NCBI RefSeq assembly: GCF_963676685.1
Contig: NC_092351.1
Location: forward strand, 28,396,001-28,460,000
Reading direction: 5' to 3'
DNA from: Mytilus edulis
Taxonomy: Eukaryota
DNA: 64,000 nucleotides
The notes below the pieces were generated by a model. The model was not told the DNA's origin. It saw only the letters and a program-made list of their open reading frames with translations, and ran no database searches. This document shows, piece after piece, positions 1 to 56,825 of this stretch. How positions within the stretch are numbered: the stretch's first letter is position 1; each line of letters opens with the position of its first letter. Made by a program: the position numbers and the translations under genes.

Positions 1-1002
1 AAATATTTTGAAATCGTGAAATAATTACAACATACAGGATACAAACAGCGGGTACTTGCACAAATGCTACAGTTTTAAATACAAACATATAACATACAAA
101 AAAGTTAAGTAAGAAATAAGCTGTTTCATAAACACTGTTATGTACTACAACAGCATGAAATAGATATGTATTAATCAGTATATCAATTCATTACACCGTT
201 ATATTTTAGCTTTTATTTCTATACTAATCTAGTAGTTACTATATATGCATTTAACTGTATTTCTATATGCATATGTAATTTTTAATGGCGTAGGGCCAAT
301 TTCTCTTGTGCATTGTTTATATTCATTTCACCTCCCAAAAACATTTAACATGGAAAATGATAGTGCAAGTGGGGCATCCGCCGTGTACTTTGGACACATT
401 CTTGTTTTATAGTGCAATTTGATTCAGAATTATGCATTTGGATAAGATAAATTTGTGGGAAAATTAAATAAATAAAAATGTTTTTTTATACTCGATTAAA
501 GTACAAATAATGAAATACAATACGAGTATATATACTTTATGATCAGGTGGAACGACAAACTAAAAGGTTGAACTATTTTATTGCATTGGTTATGTTTATT
601 TCACCCTCCAATTTTTTTTTTAAAGTACTACAATATTAATAAGATTTACAGCATAAAGGCTTCATCTGTTTAAAACTGTTTTACGTATTTTCAAACATGC
701 AATCGAACTGTAATGTCAAAAGAGGACCTTTTAATCAAATAATTAATTCTTAACCAAGTCAAGTATGTCTCAGAAAGTAAAGATATATACTGCTGTCTTT
801 CCGATGAAAAGTAAACCATGTTATAAATATAATTCACTTCTTTGCAATATTTTACAAAAAAGTAAAAAATAAATCAATATTGTGTCAAAATCAATAGCAT
901 TTAACAGCAATGCACGGCACTGTATAACAAATTTGATTTAAGGTTACATGTAAAAAAATGTTGGGAAATCTGGTCAATTTATTTTTTAGACTCGGTAATA
1001 TT

Positions 1003-5532: not shown

Positions 5533-5895
5533 AAAAAGTAAAATCACAAAAAAATACTGAATCCAGAGGAAAATCAACTCGGAAAGTCCATAATCACATG
5601 GCAAAATCAAATAACAAAACGCATCAAAAACGAATGGACAAGAACTGTCATATTCCTGACTTGGTACAGGCATTTTCGAATGTAGAAAATGATGGATTTA
5701 ACCTGGTTTTATAGCGCTAACCCTCTCACTTTGATGACAGTCTTCAAATTTCGTTATATTTACATTGATGCGTTAACTAAACAGACACAATAAATAAAAT
5801 AGTCAAAATATTGGCACATCAGTGATCATCGTATAACAATTTTAAAAGGAACAATTTAACAGAACACAAAAACATCTATTTACATACACATTCAT
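5533..5895 (-). repeat. Dispersed repeat matching the 3' end of the Penelope-like element (AAAAGTAAAATCACAAAAATACTGAA family)
   Basis: Further copies at ~16643-16995, 36460-36635, 40527-40620, 45400-45662 (opposite orientation), 46965-47040, 51300-51485 (opposite), 58260-58730, and contiguous with the RT at 56340-57470. Confidence 0.8.
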
Positions 5896-6383: not shown

Positions 6384-6534
6384 CAGAGTCTGATTTTAGA
6401 GGGGGAAGTGGGTTCGCCCTCTTCTGTGGGAAAATTTGGTTGATTATATAGGGAATCACTGAATCATGACTGGAGCTGGCCCGTCTTAGACAGTCAGTGG
6501 GTTCCGTCTACTTAAAATTTCTGGATCCGCCACG
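6384..6534. mobile_element. Short decayed hAT-like MITE
   Basis: GC-rich island ending in CTGGATCCGCCAC, the same terminus as at 31281-31293. Confidence 0.5.
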
Positions 6535-6631
6535 GGTCAAAATATTTGTCTTTAATTATTTGATTATGAATAGCCCCAAAAAGTTGTTTTCTGCACTTAA
6601 GGAGGCTCGCGGGTACGGTACTAATTTTCTT

Positions 6632-6675
6632 GTACCAGATGCGCATTTCGACAATACATGTCTCTTCAGAGATGC
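6632..6675 (-). ncRNA. Minimal type I hammerhead ribozyme (stem I weakened)
   Basis: Core CUGAAGA/GAAA/AUC intact; two stem I substitutions relative to the other copies. Confidence 0.75.
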
Positions 6676-6981
6676 TCGTGGCCTAAATATTTGAAATCCA
6701 AAGCTTATATAAAAGATGAAGAGCTATAATCCAAAAGGTTCAAAAAGCATAGCCAAATTCGTGAAAGGAATCAGAGCTTTGCATGAGGGAGATATATTCC
6801 TTAATTTATAATAATTTCTATCATTTAGTAACAGCAAATTTTAATAACACAAAAAATTTGTATTTTCATGGCAGTACCGAAGTACTGGCTACTGGGCTGG
6901 TGATACCCTCGGGGACTAATAGTCCACCAGCAGAGGCATCGACCCAGTGATAGTAATTAAATTAACGGTACTAATTTTCTT

Positions 6982-7025
6982 GCACCAGATGCGCATTTCG
7001 ACAATACATGTCTCTTCAGTGATGC
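6982..7025 (-). ncRNA. Minimal type I hammerhead ribozyme
   Basis: Stem I GCAUCA/UGGUGC, core CUGAAGA, stem II GACA/UGUC, GAAA, palindromic stem III AUGCGCAU, AUC triplet. Predicted cut between 6988 and 6987. Confidence 0.9.
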
Positions 7026-7331
7026 TCGTGGCTTAAATATTTGAAATCCAAAGCTTATATAAAAGATGAAGAGCTATAATCCAAAAGGTTCAAAAAGCAT
7101 AGCCAAATTCGTGAAAGGAATCAGAGCTTTGCATGAGGGAGATATATTCCTTAATTTATAATAATTTCTATCATTTAGTAACAGCAAATTTTAATAACAC
7201 AAAAAATCCGTATTTTCATGCCAGTACCGAAGTACTGGCTACTGGGCTGGTGATACCCTCGGGGACTAATAGTCCACCAGCAGAGGCATCGACCCAGTGG
7301 TAGTAATTAAATTAACGGTACTAATTTTCTT

Positions 7332-7375
7332 GCACCAGATGCGCATTTCGACAATACATGTCTCTTCAGTGATGC
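7332..7375 (-). ncRNA. Minimal type I hammerhead ribozyme
   Basis: Identical to 6982-7025. Confidence 0.9.
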
Positions 7376-7681
7376 TCGTGGCCTAAATATTTGAAATCCA
7401 AAGCTTATATAAAAGATGAAGAGCTATAATCCAAAAGGTTCAAAAAGCATAGCCAAATTCGTGAAAGGAATCATAGCTTTGCATAAGGGAGATACATTCC
7501 TTAATTTATAATAATTTCTATCATTTAGTAACAGAAAATTTTAATAACACAAAAAATCCGTATTTTCATGCCAGTACCGAAGTACTAGCTACTGGGCTGG
7601 TGATACCCTCGGGGACTAATAGTCCACCAGCAGAGGCATCGACCCAGTGGTAGTAATTAAATTAACGGTACTAATTTTCTT

Positions 7682-7725
7682 GCACCAGATGCGCATTTCG
7701 ACAATACATGTCTCTTCAGTGATGC
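7682..7725 (-). ncRNA. Minimal type I hammerhead ribozyme
   Basis: Identical to 6982-7025; the array ends at the 5' strand of its stem I. Confidence 0.9.
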
Positions 7726-8881
7726 TATAAATTATTACTTTATGATATGGTCCAAAAATCAACCAAATAAATCGATTCTGTTTGGCCCCAGATGACTTTT
7801 AAATTGTTTATATTATTAAAAAAAGCTCAAAATTATCTCCCTTTTGTGCAAAAATGCCATTTTTTGGCATTAGAATTAAAATATCTTTTTTAACTCATCG
7901 GTGACCTATATTTTTTTGTTATTGTTTTCAAATAAGCTGTACATAAACTAAATAATTGTAAAATTTAATCGACTTCTGTAATTACCTCTATTTCGTCTAT
8001 TAGTTCAACAGAAAAAAAAGAACATTAACAAAAATGTATGCTTCTTTCGGTTGCAGATTGTGAGCTGAAATGAACGGTGACCCCTTTTTTATTTCATTTT
8101 TCTATTAAGTATAAGATAAAGTTCATTTATAAAAAAAAATCCTATATTAAAAAAAAAATCATTTATACCCGCGAGCCCCCTAAAAAGAAAGGGGCTTTAT
8201 AATAATGGAATATAGAAATACTATTTCGCTATCAAAAGAGTTAGTTTGATTCAATTTCGTTAGAATAAGCTAACAAAATCAAACACTGATGTATTTTTTG
8301 CTTGCAAGTCAATTATTCAAAAACATTTGAATCAGTATCCATACAACTTTTAATTGGACTTTTAGTTGAGAAGGTTGCGCACATGTTCAACATCAGGGCC
8401 ATTCATAAAAAAGGAACTATAGAATTAAACTTATCAATTACAAAAGATAAACAAATTGAGACAATTATGATAATTCAAGGTAAAACAGAAGACCTCAGCA
8501 TGCTAATAAGATACCTTATTTTGTTCCACGAGTGATATCATAAATTACAGTGACCGACCTTATAAAAAAGAAGATGTGGTATGATTGCCAATGAGACAAC
8601 TGTTCACAAAAGACCAAAAAAAAACCATTAACAACTATAGGTCACCGTACGGCCTTCAACAATGAGCAAAGCCCATACTGCATAGTCAGCTATAAAAGGC
8701 CCCGATATGACAATGTAAAACAATTCAAACAAGAAAACCAACGGCCTTATTTATATAAAAAAAATGAATTTTTAGTTTATATTTGTGTAGAACGTTGATA
8801 TTTTTCGTGTGCATTATTTATATCTGTTCTTGGGTGTTAAATTATTATGAAGGAAATAGAGATTGAATACACAATCATAAA

Positions 8882-18160: not shown

Positions 18161-18206
18161 GAGCGTCACTGATGAGTCTTTTGTAGACGAAACGCGCGTC
18201 GGGCGT
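18161..18206 (+). ncRNA. Hammerhead ribozyme, second retrozyme family
   Basis: GCGTCA-CTGATGA-GTCT-tttgt-AGAC-GAA-ACGCGCGT-C-GGGCGT; core intact, one mismatch at the base of stem I. Confidence 0.8.
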
Positions 18207-18447: not shown

Positions 18448-18493
18448 GAGCGTCACTGATGAGTCTTATGTAGACGAAACGCACGTCTGGCGT
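18448..18493 (+). ncRNA. Hammerhead ribozyme, second retrozyme family
   Basis: GCGTCA-CTGATGA-GTCT-tatgt-AGAC-GAA-ACGCACGT-C-TGGCGT; core intact. Confidence 0.82.
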
Positions 18494-21705: not shown

Positions 21706-24700
21706 GTCTGAAATATATAAATATATATAAATGAATATGTATCTATTATGAAAGGTTGAATTGAATAAATATGCCAAGGTGCTAATATGAAAAGAAAATG
21801 AATAAGCGTACAATTAAAATTGTTTCTAGTGCAAACTTATTGAAGTCTAATAATATCTCTTTAATACTGTCATTTTTTAACAATACTAAATAAATGCTCT
21901 AATTGTAATATCATATGTTTGAATACAGTCTGTTACTGGCAGAAACAGATATTAGAAGTCTAGACAGCAGCTTTTAAATGAAAGCAACTAGTATGAATAA
22001 AAAGTGGAACAAATGAAATTGCTGCTCAGGACTTGCCAGTATGTGATATTTATGTAACTATTGCATTATCGTGTCAAAGACTAAGGTAATTTCAAGATGA
22101 GTGCAACACAGGTAAACCCTTGATAAATGACTTTTATTTTGTATAGCACTTCAGATTTGAATTGATAGAGATTATTATAAACTAATTGATTGAGATAATA
22201 ATGATGAAAAGAAAACCAGTCTGACATTATTAACAATAGAAACATAGATTTAAAAGAACAAAGGACAGATCGTGTCCATACTTTCACGAAATTGTTTTAC
22301 GAGCTATTTTAACTTCGATACAAAATGCGTTCTATGGAAATTTAAACTACATATAACATAAACAATTGGTAATTAATTATGAATCGCCATTCCAACAAAA
22401 AACCTATTATTTGTCTGTTTGTCTTTTTTTCGTTTTCATCTATGGCGTTGTCAGTTGATTTTCGATCTATGAGTTTGAATGTCCTTCTGGTATCTTTCGA
22501 CCCATCTTTGGTAAATTTTGTTTTTCTATCTTGAAACTTTTCAACTGTTATTTCATTCCATGAACACTGTTTTCATATAAACGTATGGACTACTAGAAAA
22601 AGTGAAATCATAAATGCATTAGTTCCAAAACTAATTATGAACTATAATGTATAATATCATGTCCCATAAAAACTTATTTGTAGATTGTAGTCATGCATTT
22701 CTCTTGATTGAACATTGGCAAATTGTGTTTACATTTATATTAAATCATTGTCATAGTACATATATTATCAGCCCTTAAAGACTCTTGTAAGTGTCATCTA
22801 TTTCAAAAATGTATGATATTGCTTTATTTATATCAAATCGTGGTGTCCTTACTTAATATTATTCATTGGTGCAAAACGTCTATTACCCCTATTTCCTGAA
22901 CTTAATATTCAGATAAATAGTCATAGACGCAATTAAAAACATTATATATACAAAATCTTTAAAAACTTATTAATATTAACATATGACGCTGATTTCGGAA
23001 CAGATGAGTTGACCCAAGTTAATGTTTAGGGAAGTTTTTTAACGGGTCATGTAAGTCAATATGTTTAATTCGTCAATTGAAAGTATTCTCATATGTTTAG
23101 AAAATTATTGTATGACAGCAATTTATGTGTGGTGTGAATCAATTAAATGATCTCCTTTGATGAACGTACATTTGTAGTATTGCACACTTTATATTTCTTA
23201 CACAAACAATTAAAAAGACGTTGAATTTAGACCCATATCAATATAAACAGAAGCATATATTGATATAAACATGGATGTTCATTCACAATCAAAACAAACT
23301 GTTATGTTTTTTTTTTCAATTTGTTTATAGTACTTACTTATATTCTCAATAAAATCGTTAGAAAAATATTATTGAATTAAATTAATTAAGAAAATAAAAG
23401 CAGTATTTAAATCAGATCTTTTTAATATATAAATTAAATGATTAATTATCAGTAAACCCCATAATCTTGAAAACATTAAAATGTCACTTTAACATCATTC
23501 ATTTGTTAAAGAAATTTGTTTATTCTTTCTCTGTCCGACTTGACTGAATACGTGATCATACGTTGCTAATTGATGCATGTTTCTTCCTCTTATATTCCGT
23601 AGAAAGAACTATTACCATTTTGTTACATTGATAATACGAAGTAAATAGTTTTGTTGTATCTAAATATCGTTTAGATGTATTAAATATGTTTCAGTTACAT
23701 CATAAAATAATATAAAAACTAAGTCTATCTTGATGTACAATCGTTTAATTTAATATCAAAATAAAATGTGTGTAATAAAATTGGCGAATTCTATCATTTT
23801 TTTTAATCATAAATATGCATTTACCTTTAAAAAAATGTAGTTTTGTTATGTTAACTCCATTTAATTTTCTATCATCGTCTCAATCATTATTTTTCCTCTT
23901 CAGTATTATGATGCGTTAAAAGTGATTTATCATGCTTTCAATTTATATCAGCCCTTTGAAGTGTTTATAAAGTTTGGGATTTTCAAATATTTTACCTCGT
24001 GCATGACTGAATATATTTCAATTGTCGAAAGATGCATCTGGTACCTTTTATTGCTTGTACACTCCACCATGTAGAGTAGTCGAATATCCAAATATCTTGT
24101 GCAAATATAAAAGAATGATTAAAGGGTTGAAATTCAAATTTGGCCAAAAATTGGCCTTTAAAATATACAGATCAATAGATAAAAACCTTCAGGAATAGCA
24201 TGAGCTCAAAAAGGACCATACCATCGTTAGGGTAGTGTCTCGTGTTACGCACGAAGCCATACTAAACTCCGAATTATACACAAGAAACTAAAATTGAAAA
24301 TTGTTTTGTCTTTTTCTTATTTAGCCATGGCGTTGTTATTTTATTTTCGTCTATGAGTTTGAATGTCCCTCTGGTATCATTCTTTCCTCTTTTTTAAATG
24401 TGTACTGTTTGTTAACATGTATTTTCCTTTTTTATAATTTATATTCTCATTTTGTTATCTTCAAACTTTTTATTCTCTAGTAAATAGAATTTACAAATTA
24501 GTGGGTAAGGCAAAAATTTAGAAATTAGATTCATTTGGCATTCATTAAATTTGTGTACAGTTTTCATTTTCTTACTTCTAACAGAAATGTATCAAATCAA
24601 TGTCATTAGATACTTCAGGATTGTTTTTTAAAAGGCTTTTTAAATCAAGGCTAACTGTCAGCTTATCGTGCAGTTTCTTTTCAGTATAACAGAAAACTGC

Positions 24701-28535: not shown

Positions 28536-28865
28536 AAAGAGGGGCGAAATATACCAGAGGAATAGTCAATCTAATAAATCGAAAATAAACTGACAACGCC
28601 ATGACTAAAAAGGAAAAAGAGAAACAGACAAATAATGTTACACAGTAAACAACATAGAAAACTAAAGACTGAGCAACACGAACCCAACCAAAAACTAGGG
28701 ATGATAACAGGTGCTCCGGAAGGGTAAGCAGATCCTGCTGCACATGTGGCACCTGTCGTGTTGCTACTGTTTTTACAAATCTAGTAAATAGTATAATTCT
28801 GTAGGTCACATTCATGAAAAGGGAACGGGATTGCGGTTACGACGTAAGAAACATATCCGATATCA
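28536..28865. repeat. Dispersed repeat (AAAAGAGGGACGAAAGATACC family)
   Basis: Copies at ~1711, 10920, 12120, 20660-20992, 22405-22510, 24300-24395, 26885-27005, 28011-28360, 34207-34417, 37809-37905 and 61110-61365. Confidence 0.85.
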
Positions 28866-30344
28866 AATTCCAAATAGTTATATTCAGACATTTCTTTCGT
28901 TAGCATATCTTTAATTGACATTAAATATATAATTCATTAAAATTTTTCGCAAGGTCTAGTAGTTGCTTTAAATCATTTCTAAAATGCAATACGTTTATCA
29001 TTTATAGCGTATAATACAAATACTCCCAATGTGTCAGGTTGTTGTAAGCACTTGCAAGTCGAGTTATACTAGCATCATGCTGTAATATAAATACAATAAA
29101 ACACTAATAGTATGTTTTCCGAATAAGATTTTTTAGCTGTCGGAATTCGAATCGATGTTGGAATGTGTGTGTGTGATAGGTGTCACTTTATACAAATACA
29201 AATGCTTAAAAAGTTTTTCAGTGCAGCAAATTTTGTCAAAAATGCAAAATACGGCGAAGTCAAATTAGACAAATTTCAGGCACTTATTAGAACTACAAAT
29301 TATAGTGGTTTTTTTAATTATCAAACTTAAATTGTTATATGAAGGAAGAAAATTGTTCGTAGGAGGGAAGATATGAAATAACTTAAAATTTACTTTGTCT
29401 AATTCGACATTATCATAATCAGACCATTTTCTATCGTTTTGAACTTGTTTCTTTGGCAGTTTTATAATTTCAAACGCCTAATAATCCATTTCCTGAATAT
29501 TTACCTTGTTACTTTATATAAAGAAATGCATTCTGAAATATGAAGATGAATGAAAAAGAAAAACATATTAACACTAAACGAACGATGACATTAAAAGGTT
29601 GAAGTCGATTGAAGTTCTTTTTTTTTTCATTTAAAAAAAAACGCGAATATTACACATTTAAATTTGTATCATGTACATTCAACAACAAAACCCAGACTGT
29701 ATTTTTGCCCAGATTCGTGTGACTTTTTAGAAATATTAATCTATCTACGCAAAGTAACGTTGCTGTATCACCCATCTATTATTGACAGGGGTTATTGAAT
29801 ACAAAATCATTCTCATAAAGGATAAAACGGTTAAGGACTTTCAGCTCTAGTTCTCAAAGATATGTTTTAAATGTTAAGTTTAAAAAACATAAAAATTACG
29901 TCCGTCTGTAATCAAACTCTTTATTAAGCTACAATTAAACTAGACCATGTAGTCCGTTTATAAAATTAACAGTATAAGAATCTGTTTCTATTCATAGTAT
30001 GATAAATTTGATTTTTTGATGGTGTAATTTTACAAAATCATTCTTGATCAACAAGATTTGACTTCAGATGATCCTTGTTCATGAGAAATTTTTGAGTGAT
30101 AACAAATTCGAGTAAAGATTATAATGTTTATGTCATGTTTTTGATTTTAAAACGTTATATCGTGTTTAACTTTAAGATGATGAATTTGCATCCAAGAACA
30201 CGTAGTAATGAGGCAGTACCATTTATTTATTTAAAATGTTCGACAAAAGATCGTTTTAAGTTTAGGCTTTCATTCTTTTTATAGTAAAATAACATGTTTT
30301 AGGTTATGAAAAACACACTGATTCCATTAAAGAGTCATCAAATA

Positions 30345-33228: not shown

Positions 33229-34967
33229 TCCCTATTATTAAGAATGACCAAATCAGTAAAAACATAGCAGGAAGCACTTTTAAATGTCATCTTTGAGCCT
33301 GTTCCAAGTCGGGAGCCACTGGGATTTGTTAGTTTGTATGATTTTAGTTTTTAAAATATATTTTTGAGTTGAGTATGACGTTCATTATCACTGAACTAAA
33401 ACACATTTTTGTTTAGGGGTCAGCTGCAGAACGCCTCCGGGTGTAGGATTTTCTCGCTGTATTGAAGACTCATCGGTGGCCTTCGGCTGTTTTCCGCTTC
33501 TTGTTTGGGTTGTTGTCTCTTTGACACATTCTCTATTTCCATTCTCAATTTCATCTTAAATATTGATTGAAATTGTCAAATTGATCAAACAAATTTCAGT
33601 CTTTATATATATTTTAATTTCTTTCGCGTTTTTCCATTTCTTTGCCAGCAGTTTCTTTTCTAAAACTTAAGCATCAGGCAGTTTTATTTCTAATTGGGTT
33701 TGAATTGCAAGCACGCATGCTGTCGCATTTGATGACGTGGTTTTTATTTGTTTTTTCTTCATCTTCGTTTCTTAAAGCATTTGTTCGAAATATAGTATTA
33801 AAAAATTAATGCTGTTTTGTTTTTGTATACCAAACTCATTTCATGTAGCAAACTGTTTTATTGACTTCCGTGAAATCGAAATTAGTGTTATCAAACCATA
33901 CAATGTGCAATTATGTTAATGATTATCAAAGAGACAGTAATAAACATCGACAATTAATGTCGAAATTATAGTTTGTCGCAATAAAAAAAAATAAAAAAAA
34001 TTGATGTATTTCAATCATTTTAGATAACAAAGAAAGATATCAATCATTCGGTTTTGCCATTTTAATTGATAATAAGGCAATGACACAATGGAATAGTTTT
34101 ATTACAAAACAATAATACTACAAAACTGAAGGTGTCAGGTTCAAACAAACTTTAAAAGAGTCAGGTTAATAATCATCAAGAGTAAAATACCATACATCAA
34201 TTTATTTGTGGAGCAGGATCTGCTTACCCTTCCGGAGCACCTCAGATCACCCCTAGTTTTTGGTGGGGTTCGTGTTGTTTATTCTTTAGTTTTCTATGTT
34301 GTGTCATGTGTACTATTGTTTTTCTGTTTGTCTTTTTCATTTTTTAGCCATGGCGTTGTCAGTTTGTTTTATATTTATGAGTTTGACTGTTCCTTTGGTA
34401 TCTTTCGTCCCTCTTTTATTATCAGACGGCATTCATATTTATTGTTTGAGTTCTTTTTTTTAGATAAACTCACCGTAGATAAACTCGAGTAAGAAACAAA
34501 TCTGTAAAAAAGAAAACTGAAAAAAAACAATCCAATGTGTATATTTTTTGTGCGTACAAGACGATATCTCAGATCTTAAAAAAAAGGAACTTACGAACGT
34601 CGTGTTTCAACTAATGAATTAGAAAATAAAAATGTAAAATCAACAAAACGCGATGAAATATATAACAATTTCACTAGAATATAATAATAAATTGCGTGAC
34701 CCCTAACTGAAAGGAAAGTCTTTAGAGTCAAACCGAAATGAATGATGGAAACTTTTTTTACCAGGCTTTCTTTATTGCTTCATGGATGAAACCAGCATAA
34801 AAGAAAGGTGTGAAGACATATTTTTTACACACAGGATTACAATGCTTCATGCTAGAGATGAAAAAGATACTAAATCTCACTTTTTCCAATCGATCTAGAT
34901 ATCATAAAAATCAGGCCATATGTTAGCGTTTATACGATTAATTTGTTACAATAATTTTCATAATTTC

Positions 34968-42916: not shown

Positions 42917-43354
42917 AATAAACTCATCATAGATAACAGGACTAAATTTCATATATTCGCCAGACGCGCGTTTCGTCTACAAATGACTCATCAGTGACGC
43001 TCGAATCCAAAAAAGTTATAAAATTTAAAAAAGAAGCCAAATAAAGTACGAAGTTGAAGAGCATTGAGATCCAAAATTCCTAAAAGTGTTGACAAATACA
43101 GCTAGGTAATCTATGCCTGAGGTAGAAAAGCCTTAGTATTTCAAAAAATTCAATATTTTGTAAACAGTTGATTTATAAATATAATAATATCAATGATAAT
43201 TCATGTCAGCACAAAAAGTGCTGACTACTGGGCTTGTGATACTCTCGGGGAAATAAATCTCCACCAGCAGTGGCATCGACCTAGTGGTTGTAAATAAACT
43301 CATCATAGATACCAGAACTAAATTTTGTATATACGCCAGACGCGCGTTTCGTCT
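42917..43354 (-). mobile_element. Retrozyme family 2: one ~376-bp unit plus partial repeat; hammerhead at 42958-42999
   Basis: Direct repeat of aactcatcatagata...cgccagacgcgcgtttcgtcta at 42921 and 43297 (period 376). Minus-strand core CTGATGA...GAAACGCGCGTC intact. Confidence 0.85.
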
Positions 43355-47421: not shown

Positions 47422-48831
47422 CACAGGCACTTGTCTCAGAATTTTTTTTTATATATACCTTAATATAACACAAGGTACTTAACTAAATTTTTTGAAAAAT
47501 GACACCCAGTCCAGAATTCCCGTTATTTTTCGATTTCTCGGTTGTCAAACCTACTTAAACTTAATATGCCGTAAATCTAAATTGATTTATCTACACAATG
47601 GTATATATGACACGACTATCATTGTTGTCGGGATCATTAGTAGCAGGTCTCAGAAGTCGGTCAACGGGATTTTTTTTGCATTCGTCTCAAACTTTGGTAA
47701 CACCCAGTCCGTATGTAATTTTATACTGGTTTCTCATTGGTCAATCGTCTGGCAAAAAATAAATGTGGGAAATTTTGGTCAATTTATAACTCTACATTAG
47801 TGTCGTTGTGTACACGTGTGTTTCATAACAAAATGAATGTCAAACAGCTTATAGCATTGAATGAGGTAAAAAATGGTCATAACCTTTTGCTTCTGGGGCA
47901 AAATGAAACGGGGAAGAGCCATTTGGTCTGTACTATAGAACAAGAACTAAAAAAAGGGGGGGGGGGAACGGTCGCAGTCACAGGAACAACGGGAGTGGCT
48001 TCCTTGAATATAGGTGGGATTACTGTCCATTCCTGCTCCGGTATAGCAGATGGTCATTTTTCAAATGACGAACTTTTACAAAAATTGACTATTGATGAAT
48101 ATTTTCGAAAATACAAGGTGTTCTGCAAGTTTAGGATTTTAAAAATTTCAATTTACCATTCAAATAAGGATTGACATATGTTGTTTTCCCTACTCAAAAT
48201 GATATCAAAATGTTATTAGAAATATACATACCATGAACAAATAGCATTATTAGCTAAATACATCTTTTCATGATACTTCAAAATATCTCGCTTTTCAAAC
48301 CTTTTGGAGTTATCTCAAAATCTTATGTAAAGTCCAGCGAGAGTCTGAATGATGTCAATAAAATGGGAAAATCTGAGTTCTAAAATTAGAAACTCTTGAC
48401 ACATTCGACAGACCTCAAAAAACACTTATTTGGGTTTGTTTCTCATGATCTGTAAAGAATTTACAATAAAGATAATAATTTATAGTCAGAGGGAAGCTGA
48501 CAGTTTTTATTTTAATAATTTTATAATAATTCAATCACTGCGGGCTGGGTGTTGCCAAAGTTTGAGACGAATGCAAAAAAAAAATCCCGTTGACCGACTT
48601 CTGAGACCTGCTACTAATGATCCCGACAACAATGATAGTCGTGTTATATACCATTGTGTAGATAAATCAATTTAGATTTACGGCATATTAAGTTTAAGTA
48701 GGTTTGACAACCGAGAAATCGAAAAATAACGGGAATTCTGGACTGGGTGTCATTTTTCAAAAAATTTAGTTAAGTCCCTTGTGTTATATTAAGGTATATA
48801 GGAAAAAAAAATTCTGAGACAAGTGCCTGTG
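47422..48831 (+). mobile_element. Non-autonomous DNA transposon with ~290-bp TIRs carrying a PIF1 helicase fragment
   Basis: TIRs 47422-47711 and 48541-48831 are near-identical and start CACAGGCACTTGTCTCAGA. Flanked by direct repeat TTGTGTTG (47414-47421 and 48832-48839). Confidence 0.92.
47833..48117 (+). pseudogene. PIF1-family (SF1B) helicase N-terminal fragment
   Basis: NLLLLGQNETGKS (degenerate Walker A, typically GxAGTGKS) and VAVTGTTGVASLNIGGITVHSCSGI (motifs Ia/Ib). No Walker B or later motifs. Confidence 0.85.
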
Positions 48832-53556: not shown

Positions 53557-53938
53557 ATAGTTATCAAAGGTACCATGATTAAAAAAAGTTTTGTAACAGG
53601 AAATTTATTAAAATGACCACGTTATTGATATTCATGTCAACACCGAAGTGTTGATTACTGGGCTGGTGATACCCTCGGGGACAAAACGTCCACCAGCAGT
53701 GGCATCGACCCAGTGGTGTAAATAGTTATCAAAGGGTCCAAGATTATAATTTAGTACGCCAGACGCACGTTTCGTCTTCACAAGACTCATCAGTGACGCT
53801 CATATCAAAATATTAATAAAGCCAAACAAGTACAAAGTTGAAGAGTATTAAGGATCCAAAATTCCAAAAAGTTGTGCTAAATACGGCCAAGGTAATCTTA
53901 CCTGGGATAAGAAAATCCTTTGTTTTTCGAAAAATTCA
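53557..53938 (-). mobile_element. Retrozyme family 2 copy with internal deletion; hammerhead at 53756-53799
   Basis: Homologous to 42917-43354. The tail atagttatcaaagg is repeated at 53557 and 53722; core CTGATGA/GAAA/GTC intact. Confidence 0.8.
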
Positions 53939-54809
53939 GACATATTAAAATAAAATCTTTCAGAATAATGACACCACACCATTAGCCCTATACTAAGTAC
54001 TCATTTCCGAAAAGATAGAGAATTTATGGCTAGGGAACTAGGTACTGCAATGTCATACGGTTGCAATGATAACATCACAGGAGTAGGAAATTTGTCAAGT
54101 CCAGTCTGCAATGATGTTAATGTAATGAGCTTATTCAAACCTTTAATATTCTATCTGTCAATTTGACCAATATACCATATTTTTGTAAAAGTAGATGGCA
54201 TGAATTCTTCTAACGTTGTCATTTTGTGACGTACAGATGTGGTTGAGGGCTCAGATTAATGTTCGGAATATCAACAACATGATGTATTGTGCCTTAAACT
54301 ATTATCAATCAATACGTTATGTCATATTGTCATATATTGATTAGAATATTTTTCCAGAAACTGTTTTTATTTTTATTTTGTAAATAGTAAACTGAATATC
54401 ATCAAACAAATCCTTGATTTAGAAAAAAAATACTATATTGATTACTGTGATCTTGTTCCTTTACAAGAATACTACAAGAATACTATTAAAACTATAATTA
54501 AAATATGTACGCATATAAAATATCTGATTTAATGAGTATCAACATTAAGACAAACTCAAAACGCGATGAAAATTCATGTTTTGTTTTGTCAGTTGTTATA
54601 GCAAAAGGGATGCAATCATCTAAAAGGACATAAAATTGTTAGCGGAATAAGATAAGCAAAACATGTAATGCTTGATTATGAGGATGTAGGACACCATATC
54701 GCTTGAATAAAGAAATAGTAACATATCAATGAAAATACGAACATTTCTGAATTACTTTTATATATATTTGCCTGAAAATATAGTAATTTGCGTAACCAGC
54801 AAAACTGTT

Positions 54810-54965
54810 ATTGAATTTCGGTCCTCAATGCTCTTCAACTTCGTATTTTATTTGGCAATTTTAACTTTTTTGGATTTGAGCGTCACTGATGTGTCTTTTG
54901 TAGACGAAACGCGCGTCTCGGCCTAAATACACAATTTAATCCTGGTAGCTATGATGAGTTTGTTT
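54810..54965 (+). mobile_element. Retrozyme family 2 fragment; hammerhead at 54878-54922 with core mutation (CTGATGT)
   Basis: Similarity to the 18161 and 42917 copies. Confidence 0.75.
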
Positions 54966-56825
54966 ATCAGCATGGGTCAAAACAATTAGGTCTCTGATAA
55001 AATGTCGCATTCATAAGTTGAAAAACTGTGTGAATGATCTACCAAAGTCCATTGTCAGAAGAATATTGTCTGTGTATGTAAATCGTACTACTACGAGTGT
55101 CTTGTAAAAGAATTAAGAATACATGAGCACTCAAGTAATTGCAAATACAAAAACAAACCATTTGACAAGGGTGAGATTTTGACGACTCATTAGTCCTTCA
55201 TGGCTTTAATGTACATTACATTGTATAACAAATCAGAGGACTTACCTTGTTTGTATTGGATACCTAAGCTTCACAAAAAAAACCAAAAAAAAACCAGGTG
55301 CATTCCCTGCATGTTAGTCTAAAGCATTGTCCATTAAATTGAAAAAATCTGTCCGCAGTGAAAGAGAGTCTTCAAAAATACTGTGAAACTGTTTACTTGC
55401 GTAGAGGTATAAACCATTTGTGGATTCTAGAAACCTCTTAAAAACGTCTGGATAGTTTTAAATCTCGATCTTTTTCTGAAATTAGTTCTATGAAATCCTG
55501 TATACAACCATTCCCCATGTAAAATTGAAAAATCGTCCGAAAGAAATAGTACACAATGCTTTTCAGCATAAAGATGGAAGCATACGCTATAAATTTAAAC
55601 TTTGGGATACCATACTGCATATTTTGTTAATAGTGAACAAAAAGATAAAACATGCTACACATATGAACAAATGATCAGAATGCTGTAGTTTCTTATTGAC
55701 AACATATTTGTTGAATTTAGGGACGTTTTCAATTGTCGGCATTCCTATGGGAACGAAATGTGCGTATTTACTTGCCGACCTCTTTTTATATTCTTATGAG
55801 TCCTTCAAACACTTGTCAAAAACAAGAAGATCAGAAAAGCCAGGTCTTTAATTTCATAATTGAATGTATTGATGATGTTATTTCCATTAACAAGCCAAAC
55901 TTTCCTGATTGGGTTTCATTAATATACCACAAGAATTATATATTAATGAATTAACAGACACGACATTTCATTTTTAAACTTATACCTCGAATTTGACATA
56001 CACGGTCATCTCAGTATCGGAATCTATTTCAATTTTGAAACTATCAATTTCTCCCACCTTAGTAGCAATGTACCAACTTCATCTGCATATTGGATAGACA
56101 TTTCTCAACTTATTTATTCAAGAACTTTCAGCTGCTACTCAGAATTTGTATAACGTCACCAGTTGATCTGAGTTTGATGAATACCATTGTATCAACATAG
56201 GTTTTTCAGAATAAAATATATATATATGAATCAAGGGTAGGTCAAAGGACGTCTAGTCCTTTTTCTAAAAGAAAGTTCATCGGAAGGTACCAAGACCTTG
56301 TTTATAATTTTGCGTATCAACTTCACAAATACACGATTCTGGTTACTGACATTGTTTCTCATCTTAATACCGTGTAATTGTATTCTTTAATTAGTCTTTT
56401 GGAATATTACTTTTACTGTTTAGTCTATTTTTATGTTATTCATTTGACGTGGCTAGTTACTGATACATCCCGTCATTGTGTTATTGTTTTACGGTAAATA
56501 TTTGTATTCATGTCTTTTGTTTTTGCTTATGTGCTTTGTCTTTAAGCCGTTTTGTGTTTCTTTGTTACATATATTGTTTTTTTTTATAGTGATTAATGTT
56601 ATAACACCATGTAGTCTGTTTTGCTATTAGTACCTATTATGTCTGTTTGTTTTGTTCACACATCATTGTGAATATAAATAATTTTTAAGCGAATGTGGTA
56701 CAAGCGAGAGGTTTAGCTATAAAACTGGGTTTTACTCACCTATTTTTACGTAAGAAATGCCTGTACCTTGTCAGGAATATGGCAGTTGTTATCCATTCGT
56801 TTGTTTGAGTTTGAGTTTGAGTTTT

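Follow-up and report, generated by a model that had tools for sequence, protein, structure and literature searches.

The genomic copies of a retrozyme family of Mytilus edulis were probably made by the reverse transcriptase (RT) of Naiad, a hammerhead-free Penelope-like element (PLE) which, judging from sequence comparison, would load on a hairpin shared by both elements and start 0-3 nt upstream of it. Naiad is put forward with good confidence as the candidate mobiliser, and a circular RNA is somewhat favoured as the template. The full picture, in which retrozymes would be chimeric circular-RNA parasites made of a hammerhead plus a loading signal from Naiad, with a telomerase-like RT starting at a fixed point and rolling round the circle, is about evenly balanced. 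The general link between Penelope elements and retrozymes is already in print; Naiad as the partner and the hairpin as the signal did not come up in the literature searched. The cited papers are represented here by extracts, to which all statements on them refer.

The array in the window and its hammerheads

The window is the whole stretch of DNA analysed, 64,000 bp in length. It contains a retrozyme array for which TRF returned a period of 350 bp, 3.2 copies and 98% matches, and whose features are given in Table 1. Four minus-strand hammerheads spaced by 350 bp, each with a full core and paired stems I and II, had been announced in the original prediction. Spacing, strand and core agree with the TRF period and with the motifs at 7725-7682, 7375-7332 and 7025-6982, whose positions also confirm the cleavage sites after 7688, 7338 and 6988; the pairing of stems I and II holds for these three copies, the fourth being mispaired in stem I. 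Hammerheads 1 to 3 contain CUGAAGA, GAAA and an AUC triplet; their stem I has 6/6 pairs, stem II has 4 bp, and stem III has 2 bp and a palindromic loop. In hammerhead 4, which failed a filter of five out of six stem I pairs, one of the two broken pairs adjoins the cleavage site. If transcribed, the window copy is predicted to give at most two clean monomers.

Table 1. Features of the retrozyme array and of its host MITE (positions in the window)
Feature	Position	Strand	Remarks
TTAA and left terminal inverted repeat; host MITE of Kolobok type with GG...CC ends	6597-6615	+	
Retrozyme array, 3.2 x 350 bp	6615-7726	-	starts (5') on a hammerhead's first base and stops (3') 23 nt beyond the last cleavage site
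Clipped 3' tail, 23 nt	6615-6637	-	family norm 33-36 nt
Hammerhead 4	6632-6675	-	stem I broken at two pairs, activity probably weak or absent; Rfam 29.2 bits
Unit 3	6638-6987	-	release hinges on damaged hammerhead 4
Naiad-like hairpin, unit 3	6888-6956	-	
Type I hammerhead 3	6982-7025	-	predicted cleavage 6988/6987; Rfam RF00163 31.2 bits and motif scan
Predicted 350-nt monomer 2	6988-7337	-	
Naiad-like hairpin, unit 2	7238-7306	-	
Type I hammerhead 2	7332-7375	-	predicted cleavage 7338/7337; motif and stem scan
Predicted 350-nt monomer 1	7338-7687	-	cleavage site to cleavage site
Naiad-like hairpin, unit 1	7588-7656	-	87% identity over 69 nt with Naiad-1000 leader; adjoins the family's fixed 3' end (+33/+34 = 7655/7654)
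Type I hammerhead 1	7682-7725	-	predicted cleavage 7688/7687; motif and stem scan
Rest of the ~550-bp host MITE	7727-8184	+	right terminal repeat 8166-8184; about 60 bp beside the left repeat missing with respect to other copies

The hammerheads had also been described as minimal. Under the definitions of PMC4209133, they are canonical metazoan type I ribozymes (6-bp helix I, 4-bp helix II, short helix III with a palindromic loop), minimal PLE hammerheads having no helix III and a long helix II as against 2 bp and 4 bp here. Definitions were likewise drawn from PMC10085705 and PMC9587614.

A search with Rfam Hammerhead_1 (RF00163), the check that the original prediction had suggested, gave no match in the window at the gathering score of 34, though all core nucleotides are present. 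Below that score the whole model was matched at 6982-7025 (31.2 bits, E 2.8e-5) and at 6632-6675 (29.2 bits, E 1.4e-4); hammerheads 1 and 2 have the same sequence as the former, yet were absent from this sub-threshold listing. The hammerhead pattern was counted seven times in the real window (three in the array and four from an older subfamily), versus a mean of 0.09 and a maximum of 1 in 100 shuffles.

As for folding, ViennaRNA gave stem I a probability of 0.0 in both the circle and the linear context, with a z of 0.55 for the lone motif, so that hammerhead activity rests on the literature. A tail hairpin of the circle (probability 0.65) was considered as a block to the hammerhead, but stem I is equally absent in the linear context and no claim is made. 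The palindrome of the hammerhead would allow an intermolecular duplex, computed at -10.5 kcal/mol. Concerning coding capacity, no frame of 100 or more amino acids was found within 6615-7726; the GC content of the array is about 0.33, the class criterion being under 50%.

Age of the copy and its host MITE

The array had been called young, which holds in a relative sense only: its units differ at 6-11 of 350 sites (mean 7.3), compared with a within-array median of 1 for the family (170 pairs), and four of the 24 multi-unit loci are more diverged. The window array is a real but ordinary, ageing copy, not among the youngest. Eleven of its variants are private to single units.

Features absent from the original prediction are the fixed 3' end and Naiad hairpin treated below, and a TTAA-flanked MITE around the array. 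Among 29 other copies of this ~550-bp element, TTAA was found on the left in 25, on the right in 23 and on both sides in 19, the window copy having TTAA on the left and TAAA on the right. TTAA flanks and GG...CC (RR...YY) termini are shared with Kolobok-type MITEs (termini as in PMC9587614), and the type is assigned from these termini. The array is present in none of the 29 other MITE copies and the junction between terminal repeat and array was seen once (among the best 40 of 595 candidates), so the host MITE is a landing site only. No target-site duplication was found at the window locus, where about 60 bp of the target are missing; the copy may have landed in the MITE, or may later have lost sequence along with it. 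None of the public contigs over the junction of array and MITE bridged it, and no empty site was displayed among them. Just left of the MITE, 6400-6530 is a fragment of another, very high-copy GC-rich repeat.

The position of the array between the MITE terminal repeats and the high identity of its units might suggest a local satellite produced by unequal crossing-over, or spread inside the MITE, a reading that we regard as highly implausible. Thirty-seven other loci have unrelated flanks and one fixed end, and the MITE was found at none of them. The reading is already largely refuted; for spread by the MITE, no second composite was found among the best 40 of 595 candidates.

Dispersal of the family in the genome

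The search covered 1.37 Gb on 14 large contigs. It yielded at least 125 matches from the best 40 of 1425 candidates, and all the large contigs except C13 are represented among the matches listed. The array almost certainly belongs to the known class of metazoan and mussel non-LTR retrozymes, whose tandem units measure 150-450 bp. This identity, already proposed in the original prediction, is upheld by the dispersed tandem units of ~350 bp, by their single type I hammerhead and by a hairpin region common with the published 375-nt retrozyme of Mytilus galloprovincialis.

Arrays hold 2 to 12 hammerheads. Their units differ by a median of 1 site within arrays versus 11 between arrays, and those of four or more units showed 17 singleton variable sites versus one shared by a subset, array-wide variants being common to the units. 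This homogeneity fits one monomer copied repeatedly, though it may also reflect a homogeneous multimer, and a young parent transcribed into multimers would likewise give uniform arrays. At L037, L054 and L055 (C7, 87.2-89.2 Mb), one insertion has been duplicated with its flanks at least four times, the number of units having changed afterwards.

The window also holds solo or truncated copies of the older subfamily, with a CUGAUGA core, at 18163-18206, 18450-18493 and 23964-24042 on the plus strand and at 42957-43000 and 53756-53799 on the minus strand.

Insertion ends

Ends were surveyed at the 37 other loci of the genome search and in the window. Short or older fragments were dropped (L031 4895-4980, L032 7-78, L039 5329-5756, L048 7709-7784 and L059 1363-1456), three pieces of L048 were counted as one, and the four rows of L037 (two), L054 and L055, having the same flanks, were also counted as one. 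In 37 of 39 array rows, and in 34 of 36 independent insertions, the 3' end falls 33-36 nt beyond the final cleavage site; only L064 and the window copy (+23) deviate. This end lies 0-3 nt before the 69-nt hairpin. The 5' ends fit a uniform distribution (KS p 0.16), no interval of 4 nt containing more than 2 of the 36. Nine of 33 junctions have a duplication or microhomology of at least 6 nt, compared with 4.9% in swapped pairs; the other 24 have none of that length. In this class of retrozymes, target-site duplications exceed 4 bp where they occur. Public data break into unrelated sequence at the same place, with loose contig ends at 6615 and, in the read set X24, 113 reads at 7654.

Since cleavage leaves a monomer ending at +1, ends at +34 imply internal priming on the RNA. 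In the older copies of the window the end lies 39-46 nt beyond the cleavage site but, by eye, once more just ahead of the hairpin, so it is the spacing to the hairpin, not that to the ribozyme, which is maintained. A Pol III terminator was rejected as the cause of the end, since copies with and without T4 at +26..29 (L031, L032, L040, L052 versus the rest) end alike.

A hairpin shared with Naiad elements

PLE candidates were collected by a GIY-YIG scan (best 150 of 858) and a follow-up protein search (best 131 of 4125). Nine families were examined, six with a C-terminal endonuclease (EN) and three Naiads with frames of 1000, 1007 and 1053 aa. The latter, here Naiad-1000, Naiad-1007 and Naiad-1053, possess an N-terminal GIY-YIG, CxC and DKA and are called Naiad by these motifs, their Pfam scores mostly falling short of the curated cut-offs. 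Nine 1000-aa frames, at a median of 0.3% from each other, show Naiad-1000 to be young and intact. All three families form partial tandems and have no canonical hammerhead. A scrambled or permuted hammerhead was also rejected for Naiad-1000 and Naiad-1007, where CUGAnGA was found on neither strand; Naiad-1053, covered by the type I scan, has one sense and one antisense match.

Over 69 nt, positions +32..+100 of the retrozyme are 87% identical to the Naiad-1000 leader (E 5e-19). The hairpin matches Naiad-1007 at 74% (E 4e-8) and the 33-nt core of Naiad-1053 at 85%, and the local scores for the three Naiads (94, 58 and 41) compare with shuffle maxima of 34, 33 and 33. The rest of the retrozyme unit gave no match to the three Naiads. 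Measured from the hairpin start, 3' ends lie at -6..+2 (35/35), -7..-1 (19/19) and -8..+1 (15/15) in the three Naiads, with 1, 4 and 7 tandem-junction rows set aside, and at -3..0 in the retrozyme. The retrozyme thus has what is expected of a non-autonomous partner, namely a cis element common with the autonomous Naiad, the same insertion end and a variable 5' truncation, the window copy being one of two exceptions in 36.

The minimum-energy fold is the same in the retrozyme, Naiad-1000 and Naiad-1007, and its outer helices are kept in Naiad-1053 (z -2.6 to -3.5). In an alignment of nine hairpin sequences, 93% of the cells are paired and 9 of 23 pairs have changed on both sides, a result reached in none of 500 shuffles (slid controls 36-48%); the tool warns that such a count is inflated, as the sequences are related and one of them supplied the structure, and part of the Naiad-1053 row is misaligned. 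The shared element of Naiad-1053 contains an inserted side hairpin of 10 perfectly paired bp (L129:4455-4480, minus strand).

The hairpin directly precedes the Naiad start codon, and it could be a captured 5' leader or promoter. In that case the RNAs would end near a T-rich stretch, and microhomology would prime them from the 3' end rather than internally; the ends are indeed T-rich and often share letters with the target. Several observations make this account unlikely. Hammerhead cleavage gives monomer ends at +1 and not at +34, and the ends are alike whether the T4 run at +26..29 is present or absent. The upstream sequence differs among the three Naiads and the retrozyme, whereas the hairpin distance is conserved, and the compensatory changes point to a structure in the RNA.

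The parent and mobiliser could instead be a hammerhead-bearing PLE of Neptune or Poseidon type, an origin that has been put forward for the retrozymes of Xenopus. This genome does have PLEs of that kind whose frames are intact and which contain hammerhead-like cores; the distance of 33-36 nt recalls a tail of 30-40 bp, and a 2026 preprint (bioRxiv 10.64898/2026.07.22.740005) ties retrozymes to pLTRs. Set against these points, similarity to the retrozyme unit is within the shuffle range for five of the six C-terminal-EN families, and the sixth, of Neptune type, has a weak 29-nt match (score 36 vs. a shuffle maximum of 30), antisense and inside the ORF. Moreover, five of the six families end in (TA)n, unlike the retrozyme, and we consider such a parent quite improbable. 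A closer partner than the present Naiads may exist beyond the nine top-scoring PLE families.

By eye, the 3' UTRs of Neptune-type PLEs at L139, L133 and L132 show cores resembling hammerheads in which the first motif varies (AGAAGA or UUGAAGA, CCGAUGA, UUGAAAA).

Proposed copying and the nature of the template

Under the preferred reading, the Naiad protein would bind the hairpin, nick AT-rich DNA, prime 0-3 nt upstream and copy through the hammerhead; the hairpin, being 3' of the start, would have to wait for the following round. With a linear cleavage product, no more than 34 nt lie 5' of the start, and arrays of 2-12 hammerheads therefore call for a template that lacks such an end. This template would most likely be a circle, by rolling reverse transcription, or else an uncleaved multimer. 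The unit can accordingly be pictured as a putative two-module parasite, in which the hammerhead would make the circle and the Naiad hairpin would get the unit copied.

Three public read sets of 2026 (X21, X22, X24) and one contig set were mapped to one unit plus flank. X21 gave 3092 matching reads out of 8.7 million, 22 of them at 99% identity or more and 590 at 95-99%; matching reads are mostly 90-95% alike and represent other subfamilies. The first mates of X21 lean to the plus strand about 2- to 6-fold, those of X22 less and those of X24 little. By the rule of the mapping tool, plus-strand first mates mean RNA of the hammerhead-sense strand. The flanking MITE has no strand lean, its read depth being of the same order as that of the unit. 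The retrozyme family is transcribed, this being stated for the family and not for the window locus. No pile-up of read ends was found at the cleavage site in these sets, whose libraries may not keep linear monomer ends.

Reads joining 7726 to 7377 (501, 281 and 167) fit circles and multimers alike, and their source locus is not separable. Naiad could therefore be the partner with an uncleaved multimeric transcript as its template, hammerhead and circle being dispensable by-products. This version is possible, though it carries less weight than a circular template. Naiad itself spreads without a hammerhead, and in the Poseidon system hammerhead mutants left insertion unchanged, unprocessed RNA being the main substrate (PMC11167929). 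On the other hand, circles make up 75-95% of mussel retrozyme RNA in published blots (PMC7229834), and repeated copying of multimers is expected to accumulate variants shared by subsets of units, of which there is one as against 17 singletons.

Relation to known systems

About 5000 type I hammerheads in repeats of 350-390 bp have been described in M. galloprovincialis, a 353-nt clone being named in the text; a mussel monomer clone self-cleaves at about 0.1/min, circles are abundant, RtcB ligates in vitro, and PLEs are named as a strong but unproven candidate partner (PMC7229834). The present family resembles these retrozymes in its tandem unit size, its one type I hammerhead, the absence of ORF and LTR and its low GC, and differs in its fixed 3' end and shared signal, neither of which is described in the extracts of PMC7229834. 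By eye, the published 375-nt sequence (PMC4918200, Additional file 11, as available) contains the hairpin region and agrees with the older CUGAUGA subfamily at 43217-43296 of the window, unlike the subfamily of the array with its CUGAAGA core and AUC triplet.

Naiads are diagnosed by an N-terminal endonuclease, CxC and DKA and are without hammerheads, and it has been suggested that hammerheads may parasitize PLEs (PMC8557442). The retrozyme shares their hairpin and end position, but encodes nothing and adds a hammerhead; the available text of PMC8557442 describes no Naiad leader hairpin and no Naiad-dependent retrozyme. In the Poseidon PLE PAc, the RT initiates in vitro inside its RNA near the start of the ORF, using nicks in AT-rich DNA, and the start sites are marked by the genomic ends (PMC11167929). 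PAc nevertheless belongs to another PLE clade, has its own hammerhead and two start sites, and the assays in the extracts of that paper include no non-autonomous circular template.

Vertebrate retrozymes are held to derive from PLE pLTRs and to be non-autonomous PLE partners, on the basis of co-occurrence and of pLTR homology in Xenopus (bioRxiv 10.64898/2026.07.22.740005). The extracts of this preprint mention neither mussel, Mytilus, bivalve, tail nor stem-loop, and the mussel hammerhead cannot come from the partner's pLTR. Our search, most of the subscription literature lying outside it, found no publication that names Naiad as a retrozyme partner or describes the hairpin.

Which RT copies animal retrozymes, and how priming works on a circle without a 3' end, has been asked since the class was described. 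The present family supplies a named candidate (the 1000-aa frame of Naiad, young and intact), a signal of 69 nt in which compensatory changes are seen, and a start site predicted within 4 nt. If the proposal is true, Naiads, which are dominant in bivalve genomes, would have in this hairpin their first cis element, and hammerheads would appear to ride on PLEs rather than to serve them. The hairpin of ~70 nt alone would also be a portable tag that makes an RNA a Naiad template, as an array of 24 hairpin-only units of 83 bp hints.

Additional arrays and fragments

This array, in L191 and L228 (G000:C12:78783741-78785700), consists of 24 units of 83 bp, 23 of them identical, that contain only the leader hairpin of Naiad-1000. 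The units are directly ahead of an intact Naiad frame and each begins at the insertion-end site; the array looks like repeated re-copying of the loading signal.

A second non-coding hammerhead repeat was found at L136:7380-8050 (minus strand) and L138:2560-3000 (plus strand), and also in L106 and L126. Its hammerhead is 85% like that of the window over 52 nt, its body is unrelated and ends in (TA)n, and no match to the Naiad hairpin was found in it. A relationship to Neptune ends was rejected, (TA)n and one 24-nt match (E 0.01) being all that they share. Its reads are strongly stranded (216:19 and 310:17). The repeat points to a single hammerhead module that is combined with various PLE signals.

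More than 30 Naiad fragments are present in the window, including 5535-5845, 28537-28881, 34207-34418 and 53955-56450, with a decayed 1.4-kb piece of Naiad coding sequence at 55059-56450. Elsewhere in the window, a 151-aa frame at 47719-48174 on the plus strand has a P-loop-like motif and may represent a fragment of a PIF1-type helicase.
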